A stretch of DNA of 64,000 bases, from contig CAZBMB010000003.1 in the NCBI GenBank assembly GCA_964493435.1, forward strand, positions 194,016 through 258,015. The letters run 5' to 3'. The translations under genes and the position numbers were made by a program. Below, one piece after another: positions 40,640-55,211 of this stretch (positions within the stretch are counted from its first letter, which is position 1; every line of letters begins with the position of its first letter). The notes below the pieces were generated by a model. That model searched no databases and was not told the origin of the DNA. It worked only from the letters and a program-made list of their open reading frames with translations. This stretch comes from an uncultured Dehalococcoidaceae bacterium. Its GTDB lineage: Bacteria > Chloroflexota > Dehalococcoidia > Dehalococcoidales > RBG-16-60-22.

Positions 40640-40655
40640 CAATAAGGAGGGACTG

Positions 40656-41126
40656 ATGTCTGCAGAAAATGATGAGCTCATAGTAGCTGCCAGAGAAATC
40701 GTTGATAATCTTAAGGTCGTGGGCCAATTCTTGCGTCGCGTCACCGATGCCGACATCGCCCGCAGCGGTCTTACCGCCCCGCAAATAAGCGTTCTGGATG
40801 TGCTTGCTGAAACTGATGGCCTGAGCCTAAAAGAACTCAGCGATCGTGTAGCCTTGTCCCACAGTACCGTATCAGGCATCGTGGACCGCCTTCAACGCCG
40901 GGGGCTGGTACACAGACAACAAGATGCCATAGACCGCCGTTTTACCCGTATTTTCTTGGCGGAAAGAGTGAAAAATTACCTCCAAAATAAGATGCCTAGC
41001 TTCAAGCTAAATCCGCCAATTTTGGAAGCATTTCGCCCCGCTAATCCGGAAGAGAGAAGCCAAATTCAAGAAGGGCTAGCCACACTGCGCCGCCTCTTGG
41101 AAGAATATACTAAGCCTGCAAAATGA
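40656..41126 (+). CDS. MarR-family transcriptional regulator
   Basis: Start refined to the ATG at 40656 after AAGGAGGG. wHTH sequence LTAPQISVLDVLAETDGLSLKELSDRVALSHSTVSGIVDRLQRRGLV. Confidence 0.85.
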   Translation: MSAENDELIVAAREIVDNLKVVGQFLRRVTDADIARSGLTAPQISVLDVLAETDGLSLKELSDRVALSHSTVSGIVDRLQRRGLVHRQQDAIDRRFTRIFLAERVKNYLQNKMPSFKLNPPILEAFRPANPEERSQIQEGLATLRRLLEEYTKPAK

Positions 41127-41202
41127 TATAATTCGAATAGTCGGACGAGCATAATCAGTAGAGATAACCTCAAGCCTGTTACTAAGAAGGAAATTGAAAT
41201 AG

Positions 41203-41781
41203 ATGATTATAAATACGATTGCAGCCGTCGTGGTTATTATCACTGTCCAACTTTATTACGTGATATCGGAAACCAGGATGACCAAGCGCACTACACGGGG
41301 AATGGACAACTCGGCCGATAGGGGAACACGTAAGCTAGTGTGGATACTTAGTGCTATAGCTTTCGATGGCGCATGGCTCCCGGTAATATTTGGTTTCGGC
41401 AAACTGTTTGTTCTTGGTGCTTGGCTGACTTGGGTCGGTGTAGTTGTCATGATATCCGGAGTTGCCTTCCGGCAGTATGCAATCAATTCTCTGGGGAAGT
41501 TTTTTACGGCGACAGTTCAGATTCGTAAGAATCACCAATTGATCAAGGATGGCCCTTATCACCATATTCGGCATCCGTCATATTTAGGGCTCCTCATCTT
41601 AGCCCTGGGGAACGGTGTTGCTCTAGCCAACTGGATTTCCCTGCTGCTGTGCATCGCACTTCCGACAATCGGGATAATACGGCGAATTAAGGTAGAGGAG
41701 AAAGAATTGTACCGCCACTTCGGCGAGCAATATCAAGACTACCGGAAAAGCACCTGGCGTCTTATACCGCACGTATATTAA
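41203..41781 (+). CDS. isoprenylcysteine carboxyl methyltransferase (ICMT/PEMT)-family membrane methyltransferase
   Basis: 192 aa. Contains GPYHHIRHPSYLG...EEKEL. Confidence 0.75.
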   Translation: MIINTIAAVVVIITVQLYYVISETRMTKRTTRGMDNSADRGTRKLVWILSAIAFDGAWLPVIFGFGKLFVLGAWLTWVGVVVMISGVAFRQYAINSLGKFFTATVQIRKNHQLIKDGPYHHIRHPSYLGLLILALGNGVALANWISLLLCIALPTIGIIRRIKVEEKELYRHFGEQYQDYRKSTWRLIPHVY

Positions 41782-42097
41782 AAAGTCTGGCACATTGTCG
41801 ATTTTACAATTAAGTAGGTTGTTGACCAGGCATCATTGCACAATTTAGCGAATTGTTAAACCATGTAACATTTGCCCAAATTGTTAAATCACACAATCTG
41901 ACGCTTTGTTGCATAAGTCTTGTTTAAGCTGATTCATTTGCTAAATTAGCATCAACCGTTGTATCCATAATTAGATGCCAAGGAAATAGAAGAGACAAGA
42001 AGCTCTCTTACGATTATAACCGCACTTAAACAGAGCCTGTTGCCGTTTGACAAGAGCAGGTTATTGATATATTTTATTTCTATTGGGTGAGGGAGAA

Positions 42098-43753
42098 ATG
42101 GTTAGGAAGAAGGAAGAAGGGCAGCAAGTTAAGTACAGTGAAGACCTAGATTTATCCTTTCAGGCCATAGTTGATGGCATAGAAGATGAACTCATCGTTA
42201 TCGATAGAAAACACCGAGTCATATTTGCCAATGCAGCCGCACGCGGTAAATTACCTAAGGTAAGCGAGTCTCCCATTGGGGAGTTTTGCTATAAGATTCT
42301 GTATGGCAGATACAAACCTTGCACTACACCTCTTTGGGAGTGTCCTTTAAATAAAGTCCTGGAAAGCGGCAGGATAGTAACAGTCATCCACCCATCTCAC
42401 AACCTTGGCAATGATACATTTCTCGAGATCAGTGCCTATCCTGTTCATGACAGCAATGGTGATATCAAAGGCATAGTAGAGCTTAGGAGAGATGTTACTG
42501 CTTCTAAAGAGCTAGAAAGCCAAGTACTCAGGCAGCATCATGAGCTTTTAGCTTTGAGTCGGGTCTCGGCGGCACTGAGCGGGTTGTGGGACTTGGACGC
42601 TATCCTCAGGGTGGCCCTCAACAGTGTGTTGGATATCATGAATGGCAATATTGGGGGAATACTACTTTTTGATGAGCAGAAAAAGACGCTATCATATCGT
42701 GTCCACCAGGGTCTGAGCGCGAGATATGTTGAGGGTATACATCTCAATCCTGGGGAGGGGGTTGCAGGCAGGGTCGCTCAGACAGGTAAATCGCTTCTCT
42801 TGGAGGATATTTCAGCCGATCCTCGCCCCGCCAACCCCGACCTTATAAGTACGGAGGGCCTAAAAGCTTTTATCAGTGTTCCCCTCAGAGCGAAAGACAT
42901 GGTTCTAGGTGTTCTAAATGTTGCCAGCAAAATGCCACGTCAATTCACCGAAAACGACATGCACCTGCTAAATTCGATTGGGGACCAGGTCGGTGTTGCT
43001 ATTGAAGAGGCAAGTCTACACGAACGGCTGAGGAGGGCCAGGGAAAGGTACCAGAAGCTGGCGCGACAGACATTAATGGTGCAAGAGGAAGAACGCAAAA
43101 GACTAGCGGGTGAGCTGCACGATGAAACCAGCCAGGCGCTTTCCGGCATAGAACTCCAGTTGCAGGCATTAATAGATTCGCATGAGATGTCCGGCAGCAA
43201 AGACACCAGATTCGTTGCTGGATTGAAGAAGGTACAATCCTTAGCCATCCAAGTACATGGTGAGATAAGCCGGCTAATAGCTGCCCTCCGCCCTGCCCTT
43301 ATAGATACATTGGGACTAGTACCTGCTATCCGCCAGTATGCCGAGAACAGTCTCCGTCCTTTAGACATTAACCTGTCGGTGGAATCCGAGGGTATGGATA
43401 ACCGCTTGCCACCTGAGATTGAAGCCGGAATTTTCCGTTGGGCGCAGGGCGCCATCGGCAATATTGCTCAACATTCCAAAGCATTAAATGTGCGCATCAT
43501 TCTTAGATGTAAGGATAATGAGCTTTACATCGAGATAGCAGATGATGGTGTCGGCTTTGATGTTTCCAAAATCACTGATATTGAAGAAAGCGGACGTGGC
43601 CGGGGAGTATTCGGTATGAAAGAAAGGATTGGACTGCTCGGTGGTTCCTGTGGAATCAAGTCCAAACCCGGTCAGGGAACCATTGTCCGAGGCAGGGTGC
43701 CGATAAGCTTGGATGCTGAAAATGAAGCCAATAAAAGTAATAGTAGTAGATGA
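42098..43753 (+). CDS. cytoplasmic PAS-GAF sensor histidine kinase (HisKA_3/NarL-partner type)
   Basis: Start probably the ATG at 42098 after GAGGGAG. PAS domain with a Cys-rich insert, GAF domain, H-box AGELHDETSQ, and HATPase GRGVFGMKERIGLLGG. Confidence 0.85.
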   Translation: MVRKKEEGQQVKYSEDLDLSFQAIVDGIEDELIVIDRKHRVIFANAAARGKLPKVSESPIGEFCYKILYGRYKPCTTPLWECPLNKVLESGRIVTVIHPSHNLGNDTFLEISAYPVHDSNGDIKGIVELRRDVTASKELESQVLRQHHELLALSRVSAALSGLWDLDAILRVALNSVLDIMNGNIGGILLFDEQKKTLSYRVHQGLSARYVEGIHLNPGEGVAGRVAQTGKSLLLEDISADPRPANPDLISTEGLKAFISVPLRAKDMVLGVLNVASKMPRQFTENDMHLLNSIGDQVGVAIEEASLHERLRRARERYQKLARQTLMVQEEERKRLAGELHDETSQALSGIELQLQALIDSHEMSGSKDTRFVAGLKKVQSLAIQVHGEISRLIAALRPALIDTLGLVPAIRQYAENSLRPLDINLSVESEGMDNRLPPEIEAGIFRWAQGAIGNIAQHSKALNVRIILRCKDNELYIEIADDGVGFDVSKITDIEESGRGRGVFGMKERIGLLGGSCGIKSKPGQGTIVRGRVPISLDAENEANKSNSSR

Positions 43754-44372
43754 CCATACCATTGTCCGAGACGGCATTTGTGCCCTGCTGGCGCTTGTAC
43801 AGGACATTGAAGTTATTGGCGAAGCAAGTGGCGGAACTGAAGCGCTGAAGCTGGTCAAGAACTTGGCGCCAGATGTCGTGCTCATGGATATAGCCATGCC
43901 GGACATGGGTGGATTGGAAGCTACCCGTCGGATATGTAAAGAATTCCCCAAAACAAATGTGATCGTCCTGACGCAGCATGACGATAAGGAGTTCGTATTA
44001 CCCATTATCGAGGCCGGAGCCTTAGGGTTTATTAGCAAAATCGCCGCATCTTCCGAGCTTGCTTCAGGGATCAGGTCTGTCTTCCGCGGGGATTCCTATC
44101 TTTCTCCCTCGGTTGCCAAAGTTTTAATTGAAGATTATAAACAAAAAGGCAGCCGGGGTAGTTCTGACACCTACACCCAGTTAACCGAACGGGAGCGAGA
44201 AGTACTCCGATTAGCAGCGGAGGGACACACTACTCAGGAGATTGCGGACACATTAGTGATCAGTCCCAAAACAGTGGAAGGCCACAAGACGAGCCTCATG
44301 GCTAAGCTTGATATCCATAACCGTACTGAATTAATCAAATATGCCTTGCGCAAGGGCATCATTAGCGTTTAA
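43713..44372 (+). CDS. NarL/FixJ-family response regulator (REC + LuxR HTH)
   Basis: 219 aa. VVDDH...PDVVLMDIAMP...LTQH, then LTEREREVLRLAAEGHTTQEIA. Overlaps the end of the kinase gene. Confidence 0.9.
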   Translation: MLKMKPIKVIVVDDHTIVRDGICALLALVQDIEVIGEASGGTEALKLVKNLAPDVVLMDIAMPDMGGLEATRRICKEFPKTNVIVLTQHDDKEFVLPIIEAGALGFISKIAASSELASGIRSVFRGDSYLSPSVAKVLIEDYKQKGSRGSSDTYTQLTEREREVLRLAAEGHTTQEIADTLVISPKTVEGHKTSLMAKLDIHNRTELIKYALRKGIISV

Positions 44373-44642
44373 ACTCTGGCACACCTCTTGATTGCAATAT
44401 CAAGCTTCCGCGGAATATCCCCCCATGTCTATATGCACACTGCGGTTGAACGCTTTTCACAAGCCTGTCCAAGGGCAGGACTCCAGAGCGTGTGCAGGGG
44501 AAATTCCATCGAAATTCGAGAGTTAATACCTATTCACTTTGAGGGACAAACCGCTTTCCTGCCTATCTGAACTCAGTCTATTCTTACAGTAGTGGCTTAG
44601 AATATCCAGATGGCTGAAAATATGGGCAACAGGAGGCCCGAG

Positions 44643-45446
44643 ATGAGCATGAAAGCTAAAATTCTAATTGTCGATGATGATGTTGATTTTATAGAAGCGC
44701 TGAAGAAATCCTTGGAGACCAAGGGCTGTCAGGTGGTAATCGCGGGAAGCAAGGATGAGGCCACAGAAGTGGTTAACGACCAGAAGCTTGATATGGTCAT
44801 CGTGGGCACAATCAGACCTCGAGGCGCTGCATTTCAACTTCACGTTTGGCTGAAAGATACCCCGCAGTTCAGCGATATACCACTCCTTGTTATCGATGCC
44901 CCAGTAGAAGAGCGCTTAATCAAAGGGTGGCTCATGGATGAAGGCTTGGAGCTTCGGGCGGAAGATTATGTAAGTAAACCGATCAAATCGGCTTCACTTG
45001 TACCACGGATTGAAAAATTATTGGTTAAAGCAATCCACATGATCAAGGTGCTGGTGGTAGATGACCACGCGGTCGTCAGGGAAGGAATCCGCGCTTTGCT
45101 GGCCCTGCAAAAAGATATGGAAGTAATTGGTGAAGCTGAGAACGGGAAAGAAGCGATTGATAAAGTGCAGCAGTTACTTCCAGATGTGGTCTTAATGGAT
45201 ATCGTCATGCCCGTGATGAGCGGTTTAGATGCCACAAAGCGAATAAATAAAGATTGCCCTCAAACAAAGATTTTGATGCTAACTCAGTACGATGATAAAG
45301 AGAACATGTTTGTTGCCAAGCAGTCGGGAGCATACGGATTTGTCGCCAAAAAGGCTGCCAGTTCCGACCTTCTGACTGGTATTAGAACGGTCAGTGCTGG
45401 TAGATATTTCCCTCGAGCTTTTGCTTACGTAACCGCAAACTGGTGA
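44643..45446 (+). CDS. tandem receiver protein (pseudo-REC + NarL-type REC, no output domain)
   Basis: Start refined to the ATG at 44643, 6 nt after AGGAGG. REC1 has Gly where the phospho-Asp is expected (KLDMVIVGT). REC2 is canonical (PDVVLMDIVMP, LTQ, AKK). Confidence 0.8.
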   Translation: MSMKAKILIVDDDVDFIEALKKSLETKGCQVVIAGSKDEATEVVNDQKLDMVIVGTIRPRGAAFQLHVWLKDTPQFSDIPLLVIDAPVEERLIKGWLMDEGLELRAEDYVSKPIKSASLVPRIEKLLVKAIHMIKVLVVDDHAVVREGIRALLALQKDMEVIGEAENGKEAIDKVQQLLPDVVLMDIVMPVMSGLDATKRINKDCPQTKILMLTQYDDKENMFVAKQSGAYGFVAKKAASSDLLTGIRTVSAGRYFPRAFAYVTANW

Positions 45447-45458
45447 CAAGGCGCTCAT

Positions 45459-48152
45459 ATGGAAACGATAACTATCACGCTTGACGGAGTTGAAGTAAGC
45501 GGCCGTTCCGGGATGACCATCCTGGAGTTAGCTCAGGAATCAGGGATAGACATCCCAACTCTCTGTTACGACCCCTGTCTTATACCAACCGGCGCCTGTC
45601 GTGTCTGCTTGGTTGAGGATGAAAGTTCGGCAGCACTGCTAGCCTCTTGTGTCACCCCCATCAGAAGCGGAATGGTAATTAATACCCGGTCGGAGCGGGT
45701 AGTAGAGCGACGAAAGATAATCGTCCAACTCCTGCTGGCCAGCCATCCTGATTCCTGTCTGGTGTGTGACAAGGGTAACCGCTGTCAATTACGGGAATTA
45801 GCCTCCGAGATGGGTATAGGACTACTGGATTTCCCGCGAATCTCCCAACTGCATACTATCGAAGAAGTCAATCCATATATTGAACGAGACCTCTCCAAAT
45901 GTATCCTCTGCGCCAAATGTATTCGCTCTGACCACGAACTGGTTGTTGAAGGCGCTATCGATTATATCGGCCGTGGATTCAGTTCCAAACCGGCAACAAT
46001 TGATGATTTACCACTGGAGAAGTCTGAGTGCACCTTTTGCGGCACTTGCGTGGCCCTATGCCCTACTGGCGCTCTAATCGAAAAGGAGAGGACATATCGT
46101 GGTACAACTACATCTAGTGTAGAGACGGTGTGCCCTTTTTGTGGTTGCGGATGTGGCCTTCGCCTGGAAACTAAAGGTAACCGCCTAGTACGTGTAAGTC
46201 CAAATGCCAAGAGTCCCGTGAATCGCAATACTCTTTGTGTAAGAGGGAGTTACGGCTTTGACTTTGTGCATAGTCCGGATAGATTGACCAGTCCTTTAAT
46301 CAGGTCGGGTGACGACTTCCAAACGGCATCATGGGAGCAAGCTTTAAATTTGATATCGGATGAATTCAAGCGCATAAAGGAGCGGCATGGTCCCGATAGC
46401 CTAGCTATTCTTGGCTCTTCCAAGTGCACCAATGAGGAAAACTATTTGCTGCAGAGATTCGCAAGGGCAGCACTGGGTACCAACAACATCGATAACGGCA
46501 GCCGAATGTATAACCCGCCAACCAGAATCGGGCTGGGATGGACCATTGGAATTCCAGGGACCACAAACGAGCTGGATGATTTGGAAAAGTCAGAGGTGGT
46601 AATGGTTGTTGGCGCCAATCCAGCGGTCTCTGCCCCGGCTGTGGGCTACGCCATAAAGCGCGCTGTTAAGTATAAGGGGGCCAAGCTGGTACTCGTTGAT
46701 CCAAGAGAAACCAGCCTGGCGCCGTTCGCACATCTATGGCTGAGGCCACTGGTCGGAACTGATGCCGTATTGCTGAGTGCTATGTCAAGGGTGATAGTTG
46801 AGGAAAGACTATTCGACGAGGAGTTTATCACCCGCAGAGCAGACAACTATGCGGAATTTGAAATAAGCTTGCAGTTATATACTCCGAAAAAGGTGGAGGA
46901 AATAACCGGTGTCTTCTGTGAAGATGTACAACTTGCTGCCCGCCTCTTTGCTGCGGCGGAGAGTGCTTCTATAGTTTACGGCAATGGAATCGCCCAGCAA
47001 GCCAACGCCATCAGCAGCGTCATGGCCTTAGCGAACCTTGCGATGTTAACTGGGAACATCGGTCATCGGGGAGGGGGTATCTTTGCCCTGCAGCGGGAGA
47101 ACAATGCCCAAGGAGCCTGTGATATGGGTAGTTTACCTGATTTCCTTCCCGGATATCAGGGTTTGGAGGAGGCTGAGGCGAAACAGAAATTCGAGGCAAG
47201 GTGGAAAGTTTCTTTGCCAACCAGCGCCGGGCTTAACGCTTTAGAAATGATGGAAGAAGTAAAAAAAGGGAAGATCAAGGGAATGTTAATCGTAGGGGAA
47301 AATCCAGTTTCAAGTTTTCCTTGCCCTTCACGGGTTAGGGAAGCGCTATCCTCTCTTGAATTTTGCGCCGTATCCGATCTTTTCCCTACCGAAACGGTGA
47401 AATTAGCTGACGTGGTTCTGCCTACCGCCAGTTTTGCCGAGAAAGAGGGAACATTCACCAACTTTGAAGGCAGGGTTCAGCACCTAGGCAAGGCCATTGA
47501 GCCCCTTGGCGATAGCCTGCCGGATTGGAGGATTGTCCTTCAATTGGCCAACCGGATGGGCCACCAAATGCCTTATGCCTCCCCACAGGAGGTTACGGAT
47601 GAGATTAAGGAATTGGTTCCCCTGTACCGGCACCTGGGCTATACCGATATAAATAATCGAGAGCTCGATTTGACTGATTTGGAAAATGACCGTTTAGGTG
47701 TAAAGCGTTTGCACAAAGGACCTTTTCCAAGTGGATTCGGGCGGTTTGCCCAAGTGGATTATAGCCCTACGCCAGATGGTCTCGGTAAGGAATATCCCTT
47801 TACTCTCATAGTGGGATCAATACTGCATCATTTTGGCAGTGGCACCAGGAGTTTTAGAGCATCACGTTTGAAAAAATTTTCGTCACATGCCTGGCTGGAA
47901 ATCGGTGGGGCTGATGCTAAAGCTTTTGGTTTTCACGATGGTGATAGAGTTAAAATCGTCTCACCATGTGGTGAAATAACTGCCATCTTGAGGTTAACGG
48001 AAACACTACCACTAAGAACGCTTTTTCTGCCGATGTCATTTCCGGAGAGTCCTTCAAATGAGCTTTTCAGTGTTACTCCAGATCTTCAGGATAAAATCCC
48101 TTCATTTAAAAGCTGTCTGGTAAGACTGGAAAGGGTTGATAGGAATGGTTAA
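45459..48152 (+). CDS. FdhA/NuoG-like FeS + molybdopterin-fold subunit with substituted formate dehydrogenase active-site residues
   Basis: 897 aa. 2Fe-2S (CYDPC...CRVC), H-x3-C-x2-C-x5-C, two ferredoxin motifs, and a MopB 4Fe-4S (CPFCGCGC...LCVRG). The Sec/Cys-His position reads GSRMYNPPT. Confidence 0.85.
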   Translation: METITITLDGVEVSGRSGMTILELAQESGIDIPTLCYDPCLIPTGACRVCLVEDESSAALLASCVTPIRSGMVINTRSERVVERRKIIVQLLLASHPDSCLVCDKGNRCQLRELASEMGIGLLDFPRISQLHTIEEVNPYIERDLSKCILCAKCIRSDHELVVEGAIDYIGRGFSSKPATIDDLPLEKSECTFCGTCVALCPTGALIEKERTYRGTTTSSVETVCPFCGCGCGLRLETKGNRLVRVSPNAKSPVNRNTLCVRGSYGFDFVHSPDRLTSPLIRSGDDFQTASWEQALNLISDEFKRIKERHGPDSLAILGSSKCTNEENYLLQRFARAALGTNNIDNGSRMYNPPTRIGLGWTIGIPGTTNELDDLEKSEVVMVVGANPAVSAPAVGYAIKRAVKYKGAKLVLVDPRETSLAPFAHLWLRPLVGTDAVLLSAMSRVIVEERLFDEEFITRRADNYAEFEISLQLYTPKKVEEITGVFCEDVQLAARLFAAAESASIVYGNGIAQQANAISSVMALANLAMLTGNIGHRGGGIFALQRENNAQGACDMGSLPDFLPGYQGLEEAEAKQKFEARWKVSLPTSAGLNALEMMEEVKKGKIKGMLIVGENPVSSFPCPSRVREALSSLEFCAVSDLFPTETVKLADVVLPTASFAEKEGTFTNFEGRVQHLGKAIEPLGDSLPDWRIVLQLANRMGHQMPYASPQEVTDEIKELVPLYRHLGYTDINNRELDLTDLENDRLGVKRLHKGPFPSGFGRFAQVDYSPTPDGLGKEYPFTLIVGSILHHFGSGTRSFRASRLKKFSSHAWLEIGGADAKAFGFHDGDRVKIVSPCGEITAILRLTETLPLRTLFLPMSFPESPSNELFSVTPDLQDKIPSFKSCLVRLERVDRNG

Positions 48153-48630
48153 AGCAAAGAAAATCACGAAAGCCGATCTCAAGCGAATAGGCAAAATCGT
48201 AGCTGAATACCGGGAGCAAAAATGGTCGCTGATTCCGCTTTTGCAGGAGGTTCAAGATACACTGGGCTATATACCCTCGGAGGCGATTCCGCGCATTGCG
48301 AGGAGTCTGGGGCTGTTTCCCAGCCAAGTCCAGGGGGTGATAACTTTCTACTCCCAGCTCTATACAGAACCACGAGGGAAAAACGTTGTCAGGGTGTGTC
48401 GGGGGACCGCTTGCCACGTGCGTGGCGGTAAGACAATACTGAAACTTGTCAAGCAGCAGCTTGGCATTGAAGAGGGAGAAACGACGCCAGATATGGAATA
48501 TACCCTAGAGACAGTTGCCTGCATCGGCGTCTGCGCGCTGGCACCGAACATAGTCGTTAATCAGGCTACGCACGGTCACATGAACCCCAAGAAAGTGGCC
48601 TATTTATTCAGCAGGAAGGAAGAGGCCTAA
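48136..48630 (+). CDS. NuoE/HydC-like thioredoxin-fold [2Fe-2S] subunit
   Basis: 164 aa (start at 48136 or 48145). Contains VCRGTACHVRG...VACIGVCALAP. Confidence 0.85.
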   Translation: MIGMVKAKKITKADLKRIGKIVAEYREQKWSLIPLLQEVQDTLGYIPSEAIPRIARSLGLFPSQVQGVITFYSQLYTEPRGKNVVRVCRGTACHVRGGKTILKLVKQQLGIEEGETTPDMEYTLETVACIGVCALAPNIVVNQATHGHMNPKKVAYLFSRKEEA

Positions 48631-48633
48631 AAC

Positions 48634-51600
48634 ATGTTGCAGCATCGCACCATTTATGTCTGTCGAGGCACCGGATGCGTCTCCGGTGGTGGCGACGCCG
48701 TTTTTCAGGCACTCAGTACTGAAGTGCTCAAGCAGCAAGTGAAGAATATTGCTGTAGACTTCACCGGTTGCCATGGCTTTTGCCAGCAGGGACCAAATGT
48801 CATCGTTGAGCCGGAGGGTATTTTTTATACCCACGTAGCGCCGGGGGATGCCGCCGAGATAGTAACCTCGCATCTAAAGAACGGAAAACCAGTGGAGCGA
48901 CTTTTCTACCGCGATCCGATGACCGACGAGGCGGTACCACACTACGCTGATATCAATTTCTACCAGAAACAGGAGCGCGTTATTCTGCGCCATTGCGGGC
49001 ATATTAATCCAGAGAAAATCGATGATTACCTTGCCGGTGACGGATATCAAGCTTTACGCAAGGTCCTGTTCCATATGACGCCAGAACAGGTGATTGAGGA
49101 GATTCAAAAATCTGGACTTCGGGGCCGCGGCGGTGCCGGATTTCCAACCGGACGCAAATGGGAGTTCTGTCGCAATGCTGCCGGTTCACAAAAGTACGTT
49201 ATCTGCAATGCCGATGAAGGCGACCCCGGTGCTTTTATGGACCGGTCCATACTTGAGGCTGACCCTCATGCTGTTATCGAAGGCCTGACTATCGCCGCTT
49301 ATGCAGTCGGTGCGGCCGAGGGCTATATCTACGTCCGTGCCGAGTATCCTCTTGCCGTGTCCCGACTTCACACCGCCCTCGCTCAGGCCCGGGAAAGGGG
49401 ATATCTGGGGGATAATATACTGGACTCCGGCTTCAATTTCACCGTACACCTCAAGGAAGGCGCCGGGGCCTTTGTCTGCGGGGAGGAAACGGCGCTGATT
49501 GCCTCCATTGAGAGCCTCCGCGGTATGCCCCGCCCCCGCCCGCCGTTTCCCGCTCAGTCAGGTCTGGATGGTAAACCCACCATCATCAACAACGTAAAAA
49601 CGCTGGCTTCCATCCCGGTCATCATTGAACATGGCGCCGATTGGTTTGCAGACATTGGTACGGAGAAAAGCAAGGGCACGGTGGTATTTGCCCTTACCGG
49701 CAAGATTGCCAATAGCGGTCTGGTAGAGGTACCTATGGGCACCCCGTTGTCTCATATTATCTATGATGTTGGCGGCGGTATTCCTCGAGACAAGCGTCTC
49801 AAAGCGGTGCAAACCGGTGGCCCGTCAGGTGGCTGCATTCCGGCCCGCTTCATTGACCTGCCCGTAGACTACGAATCGTTAAAAGGGCTGGGCTCAATAA
49901 TGGGGTCTGGCGGCATGGTGGTGATGGATGAGACCACCTGTATGGTCGAGATAGCGAGATACTTTCTCAGTTTCACCCAGGATGAGTCCTGCGGTAAATG
50001 TACCCCGTGCCGCTTGGGTACCAAACAGATGCTGGAAATCCTGACCCGAATCACGGAAGGAAAAGGGCAGGAAGAAGACATTGACACATTGCTTACCATT
50101 GCGGCTACGGTCAAAGAGTGCTCATTATGCGGCCTCGGTCAGACTTCGCCTAACCCGGTACTGACCACCATCAATTATTTCCGGGATGAATATGAAGCAC
50201 ACATCAGAGAAAAAAGGTGTCCGGCCGCTGTTTGCGATGCTCTGATGATCTCACCATGCCAGCATACCTGTCCGGTGGGCGTCAATATTCCAAAGTATGT
50301 GGCTCATATCGCCGCTGGCGAATATCGGGAGGCAATTAACACCATCAGAGAGCGCAATCCCTTTCCCGCTATCTGTGGCCGTATATGCCATCACCCCTGC
50401 GAATCCAGGTGTCGCCGTGGAGAGCTGGATGATCCGGTAGCCATAAGAGAACTCAAGCGTTTTGCCTCCGACTGGTCTTTCAAGCATGTAAAAGAAGATC
50501 CTATACCATTTCCACAGACAAAAGGCCAGCATGTAGCAGTGGTCGGGGCCGGCCCCACGGGTTTATCTTGCGCCTACTTTCTGGCACAGATGGGCTATCC
50601 GGTGACCGTTTTTGAAGCCCTCCCCATAGGCGGTGGCATGCTGTCGGTGGCGATACCTGAATTTAGATTGCCTCACGAGATAATTCAAAAGGAGATAGAT
50701 TTCATTGCCAAGAAAGGAGTAGAGATAAGGTACAATACTCCCATAAACGTCAATTTCACGGTGGAAGACCTCAGAAAAGACGGTTATGATGCCGTCTTTA
50801 TCGCTTCTGGTGCCCAGAGAAGTCAGCGCATCGGAATTCCCGGTGAACTAGAGGATGCCGCCGGTTTCTATTACGGGCTGCGGTTCCTGAGAGATATCAA
50901 ACTGGGCAGGCAGGTTGATATTGGCCATCGGGTAGTGATTATCGGCGGTGGCAACGTAGCTCTGGATACGGCTCGCTCGTCACTTCGGCTTGGCGCTGAT
51001 GAAGTGAGTATCTTTTACCGTCGGTCGCGTGAGGAAATGCCAGTTACCGAGGTGGAATACGACCAAGCTATCGCCGAAGGTATAAAAGTCAATTATCTGG
51101 TCAGTCCGACCAGAATCGAAAGCGAGAACTGGAAGGTAACCGGCCTGCAGTGTATCCGGATGAGCCTCGGGGAACCTGACGAGAGCGGTCGCCGACGGCC
51201 AATCCCAATCGCTGGCTCGGAATTCTTTGTCCCGGCAGATACCGTGATTGCTGCCGTCGGCCAAGCCCCTGACCTGTCCTTTCTGCCCGCCGATAGCGCG
51301 CTGGAACGCACCCGCTGGGAGACCCTGGTTGTAGATAGCAATTCCCTAGCGACAAATGTTAGCGGTATTTTCGCCGGTGGCGATTTTGTTACCGGGCCGG
51401 CTATGGTGATAGACGCCATTGCTGCGGGGAGAAGAGGGGCTATCGCCATCGACAAATACCTGAAAGGCGATGTTTCCAAGGTCCAGATTTACGACCTGAA
51501 AACGAAAATTGTCAGTGCAGCACCCGAACAGGAAGTTGAAGAATCCTGGGAAGAACAGCCAAGGGTTTCTGCACCAACACTTCCTGTTCAGAGAAGAAAG

Positions 51601-51690
51601 GCGAGCTTTGATGAAGTTGAACTTGCTTTTTCGGCAAAGAAGGCCGCGCAGGAGGCTAAACGCTGTCTAAGATGTGACTTAGAGGGGTAA
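48634..51690 (+). CDS. NuoF/HydB-like FMN/NADH subunit fused to a GltD/NfnB-like FAD/NADPH domain
   Basis: 1018 aa. N-terminal 2Fe-2S Trx-like domain, GLRGRGGAGFPTGRKWEF, and CGKCTPCRLGT. These are followed by a Cys-rich GltD N-terminal region, VAVVGAGPTGLSCAYFLA and VVIIGGGNVALDTA. Confidence 0.85.
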   Translation: MLQHRTIYVCRGTGCVSGGGDAVFQALSTEVLKQQVKNIAVDFTGCHGFCQQGPNVIVEPEGIFYTHVAPGDAAEIVTSHLKNGKPVERLFYRDPMTDEAVPHYADINFYQKQERVILRHCGHINPEKIDDYLAGDGYQALRKVLFHMTPEQVIEEIQKSGLRGRGGAGFPTGRKWEFCRNAAGSQKYVICNADEGDPGAFMDRSILEADPHAVIEGLTIAAYAVGAAEGYIYVRAEYPLAVSRLHTALAQARERGYLGDNILDSGFNFTVHLKEGAGAFVCGEETALIASIESLRGMPRPRPPFPAQSGLDGKPTIINNVKTLASIPVIIEHGADWFADIGTEKSKGTVVFALTGKIANSGLVEVPMGTPLSHIIYDVGGGIPRDKRLKAVQTGGPSGGCIPARFIDLPVDYESLKGLGSIMGSGGMVVMDETTCMVEIARYFLSFTQDESCGKCTPCRLGTKQMLEILTRITEGKGQEEDIDTLLTIAATVKECSLCGLGQTSPNPVLTTINYFRDEYEAHIREKRCPAAVCDALMISPCQHTCPVGVNIPKYVAHIAAGEYREAINTIRERNPFPAICGRICHHPCESRCRRGELDDPVAIRELKRFASDWSFKHVKEDPIPFPQTKGQHVAVVGAGPTGLSCAYFLAQMGYPVTVFEALPIGGGMLSVAIPEFRLPHEIIQKEIDFIAKKGVEIRYNTPINVNFTVEDLRKDGYDAVFIASGAQRSQRIGIPGELEDAAGFYYGLRFLRDIKLGRQVDIGHRVVIIGGGNVALDTARSSLRLGADEVSIFYRRSREEMPVTEVEYDQAIAEGIKVNYLVSPTRIESENWKVTGLQCIRMSLGEPDESGRRRPIPIAGSEFFVPADTVIAAVGQAPDLSFLPADSALERTRWETLVVDSNSLATNVSGIFAGGDFVTGPAMVIDAIAAGRRGAIAIDKYLKGDVSKVQIYDLKTKIVSAAPEQEVEESWEEQPRVSAPTLPVQRRKASFDEVELAFSAKKAAQEAKRCLRCDLEG

Positions 51691-51726
51691 CACCTTAGAC
51701 ATTACTAGCTTGATGGGAGGGCTATC

Positions 51727-52371
51727 ATGAAATCAATAACCAGACAGAAACCGCTGGAAGAAATACAGGAGCAATTGGCTAACCTTGATCATGTATTCAT
51801 TATTGGTTGCGGTACGTGCACGACTATGACTAAAACCGGCGGGATCGACCAAGTTCTGGAGATGAAGGATCATCTTTTGGAGATAGGTAAACGGGTCAGT
51901 GGCTGGACCGTTATCCCGACCGCCTGCGACGAGATGACCGAGGCAGCAATGAAGGAAAACAGGCGAGCGATTGAAAACGCAAATTGCATTCTGATAATGA
52001 CCTGTGCCTTGGGGGTACACCGGATAAATTCGTATATTGACCGGCCTGTAGTACCGGCACTGGATACTCTGTTCATAGCTGTAGAAGAGGCTCCGGGATA
52101 CTTCCGTGAGGTTTGCGTCCAGTGCGGTCAATGCGTCTTAGGTGAAACTGCTGGTATCTGCCCGATTACCAATTGCCACAAGGGACTGGTCAATGGCCCA
52201 TGTGGCGGCACCAATAACGGCAAGTGCGAGGTTGATAAGGAAAAAGATTGTGCCTGGACCCTTATCTACGAGCGTCTGAAAGCGCAGGGGCGTCTTGATT
52301 TGATGCGCAAGTATCAGCCTCCACATAATTACCAGGTAATGCCCCGGCCGAGAACCATCAAAATAGAATGA
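51727..52371 (+). CDS. metV: MetV (methylene-THF reductase C-terminal-domain FeS/zinc-ribbon subunit)
   Basis: 214 aa. Contains IIGCGTCTT...CVQCGQCVL...CPITNCHKGLVNGPCGG...GKCEVDKEKDCAW. Confidence 0.8.
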   Translation: MKSITRQKPLEEIQEQLANLDHVFIIGCGTCTTMTKTGGIDQVLEMKDHLLEIGKRVSGWTVIPTACDEMTEAAMKENRRAIENANCILIMTCALGVHRINSYIDRPVVPALDTLFIAVEEAPGYFREVCVQCGQCVLGETAGICPITNCHKGLVNGPCGGTNNGKCEVDKEKDCAWTLIYERLKAQGRLDLMRKYQPPHNYQVMPRPRTIKIE

Positions 52372-52388
52372 GCGAGGAGGTTAGGATA

Positions 52389-53279
52389 ATGGTGTCGCGC
52401 TTTCGAGATGCTTTAAACTCCGGAAAGTTCGTCATTACCAGTGAGGTGGCACCGCCAAAGGGAACCAACATCGATAAAATGCTCCACCATATTGACCTAC
52501 TTAAAGACAAGGTGGACGCCATTAACGTCACTGACCACCAGAGCTCGGTCATGCGTTTCCCTTCCCTTGGCGGTTGCCTCGCCATTAAGGAGCGGGGTGG
52601 TGAGCCTGTTTTACAGATGACCTGCCGGGATCGTAACCGCCTGGCACTTCAGGCTGAACTCCTGTTAGCGCATACACGGGGGATCAACAATGTCCTTTGC
52701 CTTACTGGTGATGCTATTCCTGTAGGGGACCACAAGGAAGCCAAAGGTGTCTTTGATTTCGATTCGGTTCAGTTATTAAAGGCCATCCGTGGCATGGAAT
52801 CGGGCCAGGATATGGGAAGTAATAGTCTCGATGGGTCTGTGGAATTTTGCGCTGGTGCCATTGTCACTCCGGAAGCCCAACCAATCGAGCCCCAGCTCAT
52901 CAAGTTTGAAAAAAAGGTTGAGGCAGGTGCCGAGTTCTTTCAAACCCAGGCCATCTATGACCTTGAGAATTTCGGCAAGTTCATGCAATACGCGCGACAG
53001 TTTCCAGTGAAAATACTGGCCGGCATCGTTCTATTGTCCTCCGCGAGAATGGCCAAGTACATGAATGAAAATGTTCCCGGTATCTTCGTGCCTCAAGACC
53101 TGGTTGATGAATTAGGTAGCGTTGCTAAGGAGGAGATGTTGACCAAAGGTATTGAGATTGCCGGGCGTATGATAGCCACATTGAAAAAGGAGGCCATCTG
53201 CGATGGCGTCCATATCATGGCTATTGCCAAAGAGGAAGTGGTCCCCGATATCCTTGTCGCTGCCGGACTCGAAGTTTGA
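52389..53279 (+). CDS. metF: 5,10-methylenetetrahydrofolate reductase MetF
   Basis: Start probably the ATG at 52389, 8 nt after GAGGAGG (alternative start 52368 overlaps the metV stop). Contains FVITSEVAPPKG...LTGD.... Confidence 0.8.
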   Translation: MVSRFRDALNSGKFVITSEVAPPKGTNIDKMLHHIDLLKDKVDAINVTDHQSSVMRFPSLGGCLAIKERGGEPVLQMTCRDRNRLALQAELLLAHTRGINNVLCLTGDAIPVGDHKEAKGVFDFDSVQLLKAIRGMESGQDMGSNSLDGSVEFCAGAIVTPEAQPIEPQLIKFEKKVEAGAEFFQTQAIYDLENFGKFMQYARQFPVKILAGIVLLSSARMAKYMNENVPGIFVPQDLVDELGSVAKEEMLTKGIEIAGRMIATLKKEAICDGVHIMAIAKEEVVPDILVAAGLEV

Positions 53280-53422
53280 TTGGGCTATTACTTGGATCAA
53301 AACAAGTTTCTAACAAAAAATTGCATCGTTGCCTATTTAACAAAAGTCTGTTTTGTATTATTCGGGTAATAACCGTTCCTTTTTTAATTTCATCATTTAG
53401 CTACAAGCATTTAGCTTTGGCA

Positions 53423-53450
53423 TTGACCGCACCTTTATTGGTGATATAAT
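53423..53450 (+). promoter_or_regulatory. strong promoter (TTGACC-16-TGaTATAAT, extended -10) giving a leaderless mRNA
   Basis: The -10 box ends at 53450 and the ATG of the next ORF is at 53457, which is the expected transcription start position. Confidence 0.6.
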
Positions 53451-53456
53451 TCGCAT

Positions 53457-53768
53457 ATGACCATTAATAAAGGATTAATAACCATAATTATTGCCTGCAT
53501 AACTTCAATACTTATTGTTCTAGCATTTATCAAAGACAGCTTGGTTAGTGTTTTTGTGGCTATTGGAACATTATCACTTGCTGCAATTACATGGTGGAGT
53601 ATTTCCAGTAGCGACCGCAGAGAGCGTCGCCGCACACAATCCGAGATAGATAAAGAAGACCGCGATAGAACCGAGCGATATTTAAATGAAATCATCAGCT
53701 GGTTAACAGCACTTGAAGGGCGAATATTCCAATCGGGAAAACCTATAGCTGAAGAGCATGGAGGATGA
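53457..53768 (+). CDS. small two-TM protein with highly charged C-terminal helix (hypothetical)
   Basis: 103 aa. Two hydrophobic helices, then SSSDRRERRRTQSEIDKEDRDRTERYL. Sits in an AT-rich context. Confidence 0.5.
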   Translation: MTINKGLITIIIACITSILIVLAFIKDSLVSVFVAIGTLSLAAITWWSISSSDRRERRRTQSEIDKEDRDRTERYLNEIISWLTALEGRIFQSGKPIAEEHGG

Positions 53769-54042
53769 GCAAGTTTTTGTTGATACAACGAGAGCTGAGT
53801 TTCTGTCGTTCTCATTTCTTGATGAGTTGATCTTTTGGCTTGCAGGTTCTCGCAATATGGGGAAAGCTGTGTTTATTATTGACAATACGGTTATTGAGGA
53901 TAAATTGTCACGTATTGCTGCTATTCGTGGTGTAGACGTTCACTATAAAACTGCCACGAGTAGTGAAATTGCACTATTATCTCCTACGGTCAGGTCAAAC
54001 GTAAATTCGCGGTTTGTACCAGTGAAAACTGCCCTAAAATAA
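53758..54042 (+). CDS. small soluble protein, possibly STAS-like (DUF4325-type) fold (hypothetical)
   Basis: 94 aa; overlaps the previous ORF by 11 nt. VFVDTTRAEFLSFSFLDELIFWL resembles the DUF4325 core, from memory only. Confidence 0.4.
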   Translation: MEDEQVFVDTTRAEFLSFSFLDELIFWLAGSRNMGKAVFIIDNTVIEDKLSRIAAIRGVDVHYKTATSSEIALLSPTVRSNVNSRFVPVKTALK

Positions 54043-54069
54043 TAAATATCGCCCGATTGACAGCAAATA

Positions 54070-54104
54070 AATGCCCACCGATTATAGTCGGTGGGCATTT
54101 TCTC
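54070..54104 (+). terminator. strong intrinsic terminator
   Basis: 12-bp perfect stem AATGCCCACCGA/TCGGTGGGCATT, 6-nt loop, then TTTCTCTCTC. Confidence 0.75.
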
Positions 54105-54246
54105 TCTCTCGATAAACGTTATTACTGGTAAAGGCGTTTTAAAGCTAACTTTTTTAATAGGCTTAAAAGATTAGTAGCAAATCAGTAAAAAGTAATCCCC
54201 TGTCTTGATAATTTAGCTTGAAAACAGGAGATTATTATTGTCTTAA

Positions 54247-54320
54247 TAGCGCATACCGGATTCGAACCGGTGATCTCCTCCTTGAGAGGGAGGTGTCCTA
54301 AACCCCTAGACGAATGCGCC
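54247..54320 (-). tRNA. tRNA-Glu (anticodon CTC)
   Basis: Hand-folded from GGCGCAT-TC-GTCTAGGGGTTTAGGAC-A-CCTCC-CTCTCAA-GGAGG-AGATC-ACCGG-TTCGAAT-CCGGT-ATGCGCT-A. CCA is not encoded. Confidence 0.9.
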
Positions 54321-54330
54321 ACCAGACTGG

Positions 54331-54401
54331 CTGGGGAAGAAGGATTCGAACCTTCGCTTACGGATCCAGAGTCCGCTGTCCTACCACTAGACGATTCCCC
54401 A
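54331..54401 (-). tRNA. tRNA-Gln (anticodon CTG)
   Basis: Hand-folded from TGGGGAA-TC-GTC-TAGTGGTAG-GAC-A-GCGGA-CTCTGGA-TCCGT-AAGC-GAAGG-TTCGAAT-CCTTC-TTCCCCA-G. U1:A72 is typical of tRNA-Gln. Confidence 0.9.
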
Positions 54402-54509
54402 GCACAAGTGAGATTATAACATGTGGACTCACAATCGGGCAATAAACGACCGGTTGACACACCGGGGCTTGATGTATATCCTTATATTCAACGGAAAGGC
54501 CATGCTGCG

Positions 54510-55211
54510 ATGTGTGATATCGGTGCGTTACAGAAGTTACTGAAGATCAAATTTAAAAACCCTCAATTGCTGGAGCAGTCCCTGGTCCACAGCTCATACC
54601 TCAATGAGTATCCCGGCTCGGCGCCGGCGGCCAATGAGCGGCTGGAGTTCCTCGGCGATGCTGTACTGGGCTTAATCGTGGCGGAAAAATTGTACCAGGA
54701 CTTCCCCGATATGCAGGAAGGGGAAATGACCCGAATCCGCTCGATTCTGGTGCGGCAGGAGACGCTGGCGCATATCGCCACCGGCCTGAAGCTTGGCGAT
54801 TGTCTATATCTGGGAAAGGGCGAGGAGGCGGGCGGTGGACGACGGAAACCGGCTAACCTGGCTGCCGCGTTGGAAGCGGTGATTGCGGCCATTTTTCTGG
54901 ATAGCGGCTTGGCGGCCGCCAGGAAAGCAGTGCTGGGGTGGCTCGATAAGGAGCTCGGGGAGGTAATCGGTCGGGGAAAAGGCGTTGACTACAAATCACG
55001 CCTGCAGGAACTGGTACAGTCAAAATACCGTTCCTCACCATCGTATCGGACGGTACAGGCGACTGGCCCTGACCACGATAAGCTGTTCACCGTTGAGGTA
55101 CGGCATGGGGATAGGGTGCTGGGAAGGGGCGCCGGTAAAAGCAGGAAGCTGGCCGAAACGGAGGCGGCGCGACAGGCACTGGAGCAGCCGGGAGGCATCT
55201 TTACACCGTAG
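54510..55211 (+). CDS. rnc: ribonuclease III
   Basis: Start refined to the ATG at 54510; the track start at 54423 overlaps the tRNA promoter region. Contains NERLEFLGDAVLG and a C-terminal dsRBD. Confidence 0.9.
   Translation: MCDIGALQKLLKIKFKNPQLLEQSLVHSSYLNEYPGSAPAANERLEFLGDAVLGLIVAEKLYQDFPDMQEGEMTRIRSILVRQETLAHIATGLKLGDCLYLGKGEEAGGGRRKPANLAAALEAVIAAIFLDSGLAAARKAVLGWLDKELGEVIGRGKGVDYKSRLQELVQSKYRSSPSYRTVQATGPDHDKLFTVEVRHGDRVLGRGAGKSRKLAETEAARQALEQPGGIFTP

Follow-up and report, generated by a model that had tools for sequence, protein, structure and literature searches.

A predicted pseudo-formate dehydrogenase and a NuoF::GltD fusion encoded with MetVF: a candidate five-subunit methylenetetrahydrofolate reductase of Dehalococcoidia and Desulfobacterota

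Five closely packed genes ending in metVF

The window analysed here is a stretch of 64,000 nucleotides (nt) from an uncultured Dehalococcoidaceae bacterium (assembly GCA_964493435.1, contig CAZBMB010000003.1, positions 194,016 to 258,015 of the forward strand). It holds five closely packed plus-strand open reading frames (ORFs) which, by ORF calls and Pfam, encode an FdhA-like protein, a NuoE-like protein, a NuoF::GltD fusion, MetV and MetF (Table 1). The last two are the subunits of a methylenetetrahydrofolate (methylene-THF, CH2-THF) reductase (MTHFR), and the first three, hereafter the trio, are the candidate source of its electrons. The electron donor and energy coupling of MetVF-type reductases are a recognised open problem of Wood-Ljungdahl bioenergetics; if reduced ferredoxin is the donor, the ATP balance calculated for growth of C. 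ljungdahlii on H2 + CO2 turns out negative (PMC8760232).

An earlier reading of the window from its letters alone (the original prediction) had listed these five ORFs, and all of them lie at exactly the coordinates it gave, on the plus strand. The junctions that it described agree with the sequence as well: the NuoE-like start overlaps the FdhA-like stop (by 8 nt in orthologues called at 161 amino acids), a 3-nt gap leads from the NuoE-like gene to the fusion gene, and a 36-nt gap containing GGGAGGG leads from the fusion gene to metV; metV and metF overlap by 4 nt (ATGA). Its report of no hairpin or promoter within the cluster is matched by a promoter and terminator consensus scan, which gave matches at chance level only, although the consensus rules may not suit Chloroflexota; 13 terminator-like sites were found where 12.0 were expected, all of them weak and inside coding sequence.

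Table 1. Genes of the module and the regulatory genes beside it, in window coordinates (aa, amino acids; REC, receiver domain).
Feature	Position	Strand	Size	Basis and remarks
Predicted pseudo-formate dehydrogenase, BfuA/NuoG-like Fe-S scaffold	45459..48152	+	897 aa	Pfam, PDB matches, active-site comparison
NuoE/BfuC-like thioredoxin-like [2Fe-2S] subunit (C1)	48136..48630 (probable start ATG 48145)	+	164/161 aa	Pfam, NCBIfam NuoE
BfuB-like NuoF fused to NfnA/Stn-type GltD	48634..51690	+	1018 aa	Pfam, PDB alignments
MetV, Fe-S/zinc subunit of MetVF-type methylene-THF reductase	51727..52371	+	214 aa	Pfam DUF5981, E 2.4e-36
MetF, catalytic flavoprotein of methylene-THF reductase	52368..53279	+	303 aa	Pfam MTHFR, E 5.4e-42
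Sensor histidine kinase, PAS-GAF-HisKA_3-HATPase	42083..43753	+		Pfam; adjoins the module across Dehalococcoidia
NarL/LuxR-type response regulator (REC + GerE)	43713..44372	+		Pfam; synteny kept
Double-receiver (REC-REC) protein without output domain	44610..45446	+		Pfam, two Response_reg stretches

The large subunit keeps the Fe-S chain of a formate dehydrogenase and loses its active site

The first protein carries the Pfam domains Fer2_4, NADH-G_4Fe-4S_3, Fer4_Nqo3, Molybdop_Fe4S4, Molybdopterin and Molydop_binding, that is, one [2Fe-2S] and four [4Fe-4S] motifs, those of a BfuA-type chain (A1 [2Fe-2S], A2-A4 [4Fe-4S]) among them, together with a complete molybdopterin fold. Alpha subunits of formate dehydrogenases (FDHs) in the PDB match residues 4-889 at E about 1e-175. 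The protein just passes TIGR01591, the Fdh-alpha equivalog, with a score of 671.9 bits against a cut-off of 666.25, and because the scores just exceed this cut-off, all orthologues bear the name 'formate dehydrogenase subunit alpha' at NCBI and JGI.

The catalytic residues do not agree with that name. Where FDHs have CAR[LV][CU]H, the window protein has GSRMYN, and where they have PLRGQNN, which includes the catalytic Arg, it has ALQRENN. Among 120 orthologues, position 351, the selenocysteine/cysteine (Sec/Cys) site, is Tyr in 119 and Phe in one; position 352 is never His, which is replaced by Ser, Gly, Asn or Asp; and the active-site Arg position is Gln in all 120. Copies from Desulfobacterota have Ser or Leu at the Sec/Cys position, within a variable loop, and in divergent metagenome copies the entire active-site loop is hypervariable. 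Control FDHs have a conserved Lys in the CxKG motif, behind the fourth Cys of their A5 cluster; most orthologues have Arg in its place. Control true FDHs in the same alignment keep CARLCH or CARLUH; three of them have an in-frame TGA (Sec) at this exact column, which validates the alignment.

The Cys/His motifs of the [2Fe-2S] and the four [4Fe-4S] clusters, in contrast, are kept across orthologues and controls, and the pattern of constraint is inverted: true FDHs conserve their pterin domains more than the N-terminal Fe-S part, whereas this clade conserves the Fe-S part most and retains the domains of the pterin fold under constraint that is relaxed relative to it. The loss of the catalytic residues, the retention of the Fe-S motifs and this inversion together indicate that the large subunit is a catalytically dead FDH, which would serve as an Fe-S wire on a retained FDH fold, in analogy to NuoG. 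In complex I, NuoG/Nqo3 keeps the molybdopterin-oxidoreductase fold as a cofactor-less scaffold behind an Fe-S chain; the window protein is far closer to real FDHs than to NuoG/Nqo3, and does not belong to a membrane complex. Its best match, at full length (E about 1e-171 to 1e-175), is the large subunit of FdsABG/Fdh-Bfu (R. capsulatus, PDB 6tg9; type 1 Fdh-Bfu), with which the trio shares its three-subunit plan; relative to that enzyme the window has lost Sec/Cys, His and Arg, changed the gene order and recruited metVF. With the FDH catalytically dead, formate would drop out as a substrate, and MetV would be the obvious partner of the Fe-S chain. A genuine formate dehydrogenase was rejected as a candidate on account of the three lost residues, the Sec and Cys controls being internal to the alignment. 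The mis-annotation is systematic, and formate metabolism inferred from this gene in reconstructions of Dehalococcoidia and Desulfobacterota would be wrong whatever the mechanism of the enzyme.

In the fusion protein a GltD module stands where the ferredoxin-side domain would be

The NuoE-like protein is recognised as Pfam 2Fe-2S_thioredx (PF01257, E 5.5e-48), and its four Cys are present. In the fusion protein, the Pfam domains Complex1_51K, SLBB and NADH_4Fe-4S are followed by Fer4_20 and Pyr_redox_2. Residues 6-538 match HydB of the bifurcating NiFe-hydrogenase of A. mobile (7t2r_B) at E 1e-239 with an alignment accuracy of 0.98, whereas matches to non-bifurcating NuoF or FdsB are far weaker (E about 1e-110). 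The alignments to HydB and NfnB end at residues 538-540, where the C-terminal B3/B4 domain of those proteins begins; from there, residues 540-1015 match NfnA (9bov_A 102-567, E 2e-127) and StnC (8oh5_C 102-566), to which the GltD half is 45-48% identical.

The motifs of the NuoF half are those of an N-terminal [2Fe-2S] site, a flavin mononucleotide (FMN)/NADH site, the [4Fe-4S] cluster B1 and a His/Cys site in the hinge; those of the GltD half denote two [4Fe-4S] clusters, flavin adenine dinucleotide (FAD) and an NADPH site. An alignment of 113 Dehalococcoidia-type and three Desulfobacterota orthologues showed conservation throughout: of the putative N-terminal B5 [2Fe-2S]/Zn site (C10, C15, C46, C50); of the putative B2 hinge site (H523, C529, C534), which aligns with the 'H..KxCPAxxC' segment of HydB; of GRGGAGFPTG, ADEGDPGAFMDR and ESCGKCTPCR...SLCGLGQ; and, in the GltD half, of GAGPxG, GGGNxA, YRRSR and the terminal RCLRCD. 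The fusion also has the signature DPGAFMDR. Within DPGAFMD lie the equivalents of A202 and M204 of A. mobile HydB, and its residues are among the Bfu-specific features listed by Schut et al. (PMC9304861; also PMC11829005). The C-terminal BfuB domain with its two [4Fe-4S] clusters (B3, B4) is absent, the GltD module taking its place; in NfnABC, this domain and the C-terminal domain of BfuC form the ferredoxin site (PMC12018979). By these comparisons the NuoF half is predicted to be a Bfu-type (HydB/NfnB-like) subunit, in which an NfnA-type FAD/NADPH module would have replaced the canonical ferredoxin-side B3/B4 domain.

All three building blocks are homologous to those of NfnABC/StnABC (Bfu type 1; Sporomusa ovata, Caldicellulosiruptor saccharolyticus, Thermococcus sibiricus; PDB 8oh5, 9bov, 9n5u). 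These enzymes, too, have BfuC/NuoE, BfuB/NuoF (with FMN, B1, hinge and N-terminal cluster) and a GltD module by the NuoG-like chain, and an 'RCLxC' motif after the GltD body is common to them and to the fusion, where it lies at the C terminus. The plan of the subunits differs: GltD is fused to the C terminus of BfuB here and to the N terminus of BfuA there; in NfnABC/StnABC, BfuB carries B3/B4 and three genes suffice, whereas here B3/B4 are absent, BfuA is a full-length pseudo-FDH and metVF is always next. Stn and Nfn act alone with ferredoxin, and it is unlikely that the window trio works in the same way.

MetV and MetF

The MetV translation has an NGPCGG motif and Cys clusters; a PDB sequence search with MetV gave no match, and MetF found in the PDB only distant MTHFRs of the MetF-alone kind (E about 1e-11). 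By the Pfam assignments, the MetV motifs and their overlap, the two genes encode the core of a MetVF-type reductase. In characterised MetVF, MetF binds FMN and MetVF alone has no NAD(P)H site (PMC8760232). The module's MetF is 68-71% identical between copies from Dehalococcoidia and Desulfobacterota and about 68-73% identical to MetF of the HdrA-MvhD and GltD::MvhD variants described below, and only 29-41% identical to other MetF copies, namely the extra ones in the same loci and that of Sporomusa. MetV, with 37-45% identity to the variants, separates the MTHFR types better than MetF does.

The trio and metVF are inherited together in two phyla

Linkage was examined from three anchors: the fusion protein, the pseudo-FDH and MetF. 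For the first, one genome per species was scanned with an alignment of diverse fusions and the ORFs were annotated by BLASTP; all ten orthologous genome loci (L001-L009, L037; fusion at least 57% identical) encode pseudo-FDH, NuoE, fusion, MetV and MetF in this order as far as the contig extends. These loci come from Dehalococcoidia, Desulfarculales, Desulfomonilaceae and 'Deltaproteobacteria'. From the pseudo-FDH anchor, the four orthologues on long contigs (L162-L165, 66-68% identity) show one and the same set of eight genes, the regulatory genes of Table 1 included, between unrelated flanks. From the MetF anchor, metagenome loci were counted only if they had at least 900 bp upstream; MetV and the fusion lie upstream of MetF in 52 of these 56, with the whole fusion gene visible in 30. 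The same five-gene order recurs in more than 60 independent loci, far beyond chance.

An orthologous trio without metVF was found in none of the 14 genome-level loci (0/14). Directly 3' of the fusion gene there is metV in every orthologous locus, at a distance of 11-51 nt in 12 of 13, and these loci contain no other electron-input gene for MetVF. In a neighbour-joining tree of 50 full-length fusions, the MetVF-linked ones are monophyletic, with one branch for Desulfobacterota and another for Dehalococcoidia; in both phyla the five genes have been passed on as a unit. The original prediction had reckoned that orthologous trios standing mostly apart from metVF would speak against it, and the neighbourhoods side with it, there being no such trio and the linked fusions making up one clade. 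Of about 40 paralogous fusion loci (fusion 44-55% identical), whose flanks were covered for up to 10 kb, not one has metVF there, and most of these paralogues have a short BfuA; the full-length dead FDH domain is retained in the MetVF-linked clade only. The nearest fusion outside that clade (L024) adjoins a true FdhA, which suggests that the module descended from such an FDH.

Over 120 database clusters represent the fusion protein at an identity of at least 78%, and all those with a named source are from Chloroflexota, Dehalococcoidia or Dehalococcoidales. According to Sewell et al. 2017 (PMC5736913), no Chloroflexi clade besides a marine DscP3-like group has metV; metV is common in Dehalococcoidia here, which contradicts that statement. 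One copy of the module, in a 'Chloroflexia' metagenome-assembled genome (L005:5948-14628), has many frameshifts in the pseudo-FDH, fusion and MetF genes, more likely from assembly errors than from decay. Two Desulfobacterota loci have extra genes a few kb upstream of the module: a divergent MetF (29% identity; L006:3758-4777) and a MetV-MetF pair (36% and 41% identity; L037:3333-4930).

Paralogous fusions and other partners of MetVF

The paralogous fusions (L010-L054 and others) come from about 40 species-level genomes of Bacteroidota, Verrucomicrobiota, Acidobacteriota, Zixibacteria, Desulfobacterota and also Dehalococcoidia. Their loci encode NuoE, NuoF::GltD and then either a short NuoG-like protein (225-650 aa) or a true FDH, which sometimes contains selenocysteine (examples are L013:9373-15010, L032:9049-13785 and L040:8561-13396). 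Four of these fusions, inspected by motif, switch to GltD at the same point and are likewise without B3/B4. No description of this NuoE, NuoF::GltD, NuoG-like family was found in the literature; possibly its members are Nfn-like enzymes in which the boundary between two genes has moved. Classical Stn-type loci, with separate NuoF and GltD::NuoG genes, were met in the same scan (L055-L059, L063) and look different; that of Sporomusa silvacetica (L063) has metV-metF upstream. An ordinary Stn/NfnABC operon was rejected as an identity for the window locus, since GltD is on the other subunit, B3/B4 are missing and true Stn loci differ.

The four MetF-anchored exceptions (L130, L156, L159, L161) carry divergent MetV (37-45% identity). 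By Pfam, one has a 704-aa GltD::Fer4::MvhD protein (GltD NADPH/FAD module, two [4Fe-4S] clusters and MvhD/FlpD) directly 5' of MetV-MetF (L156:4977-8666), apparently an undescribed MTHFR partner. Another, on a metagenome contig, has genes for a multihaem cytochrome c, an Fe-S protein, an NrfD-like membrane protein, HdrA and MvhD in that place (L159:1213-9988, Pfam), which suggests a membrane- or quinone-linked MTHFR variant. Upstream of the third there is a GltD-like match by tblastn only (L161), and upstream of the fourth no match to the fusion (L130). The exceptions with HdrA-MvhD or GltD::MvhD suggest that partners are swapped on MetVF.

Relation to known reductases

The arrangement has been flagged before. 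Yi et al. 2021 (PMC8515935) found genes for NuoEFG homologues upstream of metFV in Dethiosulfatarculus sandiegensis, described the arrangement as widespread in Desulfobacterales and Chloroflexi, named it "X-type" or MetFV group III, with a MetFV branch of its own, and speculated that X-type MTHFR bifurcates. It is the same arrangement as in the window, in the 14 genome-level orthologous loci (L001-L009, L037, L162-L165) and in the 52 metagenome loci, and the original prediction erred in holding the architecture to be absent from known MTHFR types. The paragraph of Yi et al. on the X-type does not contain the dead FDH, the GltD fusion on NuoF, the missing ferredoxin-side domain or the two-component genes. 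A Nuo-like type is not part of the four-type MTHFR scheme (PMC8760232), and the Bfu family survey (PMC9304861) mentions neither MetF nor methylene-THF. As far as the searchable literature shows, what is new is the recognition of the large subunit as a pseudo-enzyme, the subtype of the GltD module and its place of fusion, the missing B3/B4 domain, the counts for the linkage together with the single clade, the variants with swapped partners and the two-component genes; the arrangement as such is a variant of the MetVF-type MTHFR and of the Bfu family, and no categorically new system.

In two characterised cases, a module encoded beside metVF has proved to be a co-purifying subunit: HdrABC-MvhD of Moorella and RnfC2 of A. 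woodii (PMC8515935, PMC8760232). The HdrABC-MvhD-MetVF enzyme of Moorella thermoacetica (type IV/6S) resembles the window module in that MetVF goes with a neighbouring-gene module from a known bifurcating family, and NADH is oxidised on that module and not on MetF; the Moorella enzyme is suspected to bifurcate electrons to a second acceptor. The Moorella module is Hdr/Mvh, unrelated to Bfu and GltD, and has no NADPH site, whereas here the likely second partner, NADP(H), would be built into the complex. In MetVF-RnfC2 of Acetobacterium woodii (type III/3S), MetVF is joined by an NADH-binding Fe-S flavoprotein that is related to NuoF/RnfC and encoded beside metVF; unlike the window module, it is a single extra subunit, non-bifurcating, using NADH only and having no NuoE, NuoG or GltD parts.

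A proposed five-subunit methylene-THF reductase

Because the trio is strictly linked to metVF, the large subunit lacks a catalytic site, characterised MetVF enzymes lack a site for NAD(P)H and characterised neighbouring modules co-purify with MetVF, we propose that the trio is the dedicated electron module of MetVF and forms one complex with it, a five-subunit MTHFR; we set the probability of this reading at about 0.7. MetV would dock on the pseudo-FDH, and the electron path would run from the MetF flavin through the MetV clusters, the pseudo-FDH clusters A5 to A1 and B1 to FMN/C1; the pseudo-FDH branch could lead only to MetV and MetF.

Bifurcation by such an enzyme is plausible from its parts. 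The FMN-B1-C1 'flavobicluster' would split or merge electron pairs between a high-potential branch (CH2-THF/CH3-THF, -200 mV; CH3-THF, methyl-THF) and a low-potential branch, the latter tied permanently, by way of the GltD module's two clusters and its FAD, to NADP(H) and not to free ferredoxin. NADP(H) is favoured as the third partner because the canonical ferredoxin branch is absent. We offer the resulting ferredoxin-free, three-way coupling of NADH, NADP(H) and CH2-THF/CH3-THF tentatively, at odds clearly below even; the reversible reaction would be 2 NADH + NADP+ + CH2-THF <-> 2 NAD+ + NADPH + CH3-THF. In the forward direction, some of the energy released by methylene-THF reduction would be conserved as NADPH; in the backward direction, NADPH, for example from FolD, would pull the oxidation of methyl-THF by NAD+, which is otherwise uphill. 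The backward direction would suit organisms with an oxidative pathway, the mode generally assumed for relatives of these Desulfobacterota. In its boldest form the proposal would make the enzyme the first ferredoxin-independent member of the Bfu family, whose flavobicluster bifurcates the electrons of NADH to methylene-THF, by way of the dead FDH wire, MetV and MetF, and to NADP+, by way of a GltD grafted at the ferredoxin dock, NADPH pulling methyl-THF oxidation with NAD+ in reverse; in that form we consider it doubtful.

The original prediction had wired NADH, NADPH and low-potential Fe-S chains to MetVF, having recognised in the trio the subunit logic of Bfu-, HydABC- and Stn-type enzymes. 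That logic is borne out by the PDB alignments and the cofactor motifs, and the NADH and NADPH sites are conserved; the low-potential Fe-S or ferredoxin wiring is not evident, B3/B4 having been replaced by the NADPH/FAD module. Its interpretation is partly supported, dedication of the trio to MetVF being likely and ferredoxin wiring doubtful.

Several points weigh against the five-subunit reading or its mechanism. The stn genes of Sporomusa adjoin metVF, and yet Stn purifies alone, as an NADH/NADPH/ferredoxin transhydrogenase (PMC7483475); this is a counter-example to the argument from adjacency in the original prediction. The favoured reaction is exergonic at standard potentials (-320, -320 and -200 mV). 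The in-vivo potential commonly assumed for NADPH is about -380 mV. Values of about -280 mV for NADH and near -500 mV for ferredoxin are quoted in PMC9304861. At such assumed potentials of NADH and NADPH the reaction is near equilibrium, hence reversible, and its direction and benefit hinge on physiology. The homologous GltD module of NfnABC delivers its electrons into the BfuA chain; if the one here did so too, the enzyme would be non-bifurcating or otherwise wired. The third substrate of known Bfu enzymes lies between NAD and ferredoxin in potential; here it would be the highest-potential partner, which by that comparison is unprecedented. A ferredoxin site elsewhere, for instance on the pseudo-FDH or on the GltD clusters, is possible. 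Finally, the searchable literature holds no biochemical or structural study of the X-type, Yi et al. 2021 being its sole mention.

Alternative electron routes

Two other enzymes with the same composition are each rather improbable. One is a ferredoxin-dependent bifurcating or confurcating MTHFR (2 NAD(P)H + Fd_ox + CH2-THF -> 2 NAD(P)+ + Fd_red + CH3-THF, or the reverse; Fd, ferredoxin), for which the linkage and the dead FDH count just as they do for the favoured coupling. In NfnSL, the FAD of GltD-type modules supplies ferredoxin with electrons by way of two [4Fe-4S] clusters, and by that wiring the fused GltD could be the NADPH and the ferredoxin site at once. The Bfu-type core is otherwise always ferredoxin-linked (PMC9304861, PMC11829005), and the reaction has long been postulated for acetogens (PMC8760232; PMC8515935). 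Against it, the B3/B4 domain of BfuB that forms the ferredoxin site of NfnABC is absent, the strict conservation of two nucleotide sites is not needed by the reaction, and its NADH-driven version would run uphill at -500/-280 mV, so that only an NADPH-driven one works.

The other, to which we give the same low weight, is a non-bifurcating NADH- and/or NADPH-dependent MTHFR, in which the trio would be an input module like RnfC2 of A. woodii, without energetic coupling. The soluble, NADH-dependent MetVF-RnfC2 is of this non-bifurcating kind (PMC8760232), non-bifurcating NuoF homologues are without B2-B5 (PMC9304861) and the fusion has lost B3/B4, and if GltD contacted the BfuA chain as in NfnABC, both nucleotides could feed a single chain to MetV. 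However, the B5 motif, the hinge site and DPGAFMDR have been kept under selection in two phyla, unlike in known non-bifurcating homologues, the NuoF half matches the proven bifurcating HydB very strongly (E 1e-239), and a module of about 2,100 residues with ten clusters and two flavins would be extravagant for simple hydride delivery.

Less probable still is that there is no complex, the trio being a stand-alone Nfn/Stn-like transhydrogenase or NADH/NADPH redox balancer that is co-expressed with MetVF since both serve one-carbon metabolism. The Sporomusa case speaks for it, stnABC adjoining metVF (L063; PMC7483475) and Stn purifying as a heterotrimer with transhydrogenase activity, as do the identity of 45-48% between the GltD half and NfnA/StnC and the occurrence of paralogous NuoE-NuoF::GltD-NuoG-like trios without metVF in many phyla. 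Sporomusa differs from the module, however, in its reversed gene order, in its gap of 169 nt (L063) and in that its MetVF is described as encoded downstream of Hdr/Mvh-like genes (PMC7483475). That none of the 14 genome-level orthologous loci lacks metVF, which is always downstream in a fixed order and at gaps of 11-51 nt, is at odds with a loose association; so are the lack of the canonical ferredoxin site that the Nfn reaction requires, the retention of a full-length dead FDH in the MetVF-linked clade only, and the fact that these loci offer MetVF no other gene for electron input.

A genuine NAD(P)H-dependent FDH (FdhA-NuoE-NuoF) next to a separate MetVF, two enzymes of the Wood-Ljungdahl methyl branch as the database annotation implies, is very improbable: its narrow pass of TIGR01591, its NCBI and JGI names and its FDH relatives in the PDB stand against the replacement of Sec/Cys, His and Arg in all 120 orthologues, in Desulfobacterota and in metagenome copies where true FDHs keep all three, against the hypervariable loop of divergent members, and against the mostly lost CxKG Lys.

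The five-subunit reading makes the module a concrete, widespread and genetically self-contained candidate for an energy-coupled MTHFR. The sequence itself points to the likely substrates, NADH, NADPH and methylene-THF, and with Dethiosulfatarculus sandiegensis a host in culture has been reported, which makes the question directly testable. If the ferredoxin branch is truly replaced by NADP(H), the Bfu repertoire grows and reversible methyl-THF oxidation is explained; if the ferredoxin-independent Bfu mechanism holds, the module would be the long-sought energy-coupled MTHFR and would supply a mechanism for methyl-THF oxidation in bacteria that reverse the Wood-Ljungdahl pathway.

Regulatory genes travelling with the operon

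The stop codon of the REC-REC gene lies 12 nt before the start of the FdhA-like gene, and in eight other loci the gap between the REC-REC gene and the first enzyme gene is 0-33 nt; the REC-REC gene, which the original prediction did not include, is probably the first gene of the operon. In the window it is preceded by the histidine kinase gene and then the NarL-type regulator gene. A histidine kinase gene lies 5' of the module in L001-L004 and L162-L165 and 3' of it in L007, where the genes for kinase, regulator and REC-REC protein are all downstream of metF. The conserved unit in Dehalococcoidia comprises eight genes, and the complete Dehalococcoidales chromosome CP070645.1 has them in the identical order: kinase, regulator, REC-REC, FdhA-like, NuoE, NuoF::GltD, MetV, MetF. 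Because the same kinase-regulator pair also precedes the GltD::MvhD-MetVF variant (L156:2459-4775), it is with MetVF, and not with the trio, that the regulators seem to be associated. On one Dehalococcoidia-type contig (L164:1-4584), a large GltD-like Fe-S protein, MvhD, an HdrB/C-like CCG protein and an HdrA::MvhD-like fusion are encoded directly 5' of the eight-gene unit; carriers of the module may also hold Hdr-type complexes.

Surroundings of the operon in the window

A Wood-Ljungdahl gene cluster around the module was not found in the annotated parts of the window, namely its first 27.5 kb and about 40-56 kb, the ORFs at 27.7-39.6 kb and beyond 57 kb having been left out; the annotated flanks have sugar-acid, 2-oxoacid, fatty-acid, regulatory and housekeeping genes only. 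The G+C content is 0.46-0.50 at positions 40001-48000 and 52001-54000, compared with 0.54-0.58 in the first 28 kb, and given this and the single clade across two phyla, lateral transfer of the whole unit is possible. The region 3' of metF (53280-54420) is AT-rich, with small unannotated ORFs (53435-54042); past these there is a strong palindromic hairpin (54069-54100), followed by tRNA-Glu(CTC) and tRNA-Gln(CTG) on the minus strand (54246-54401) and then by RNase III (54423-55211).

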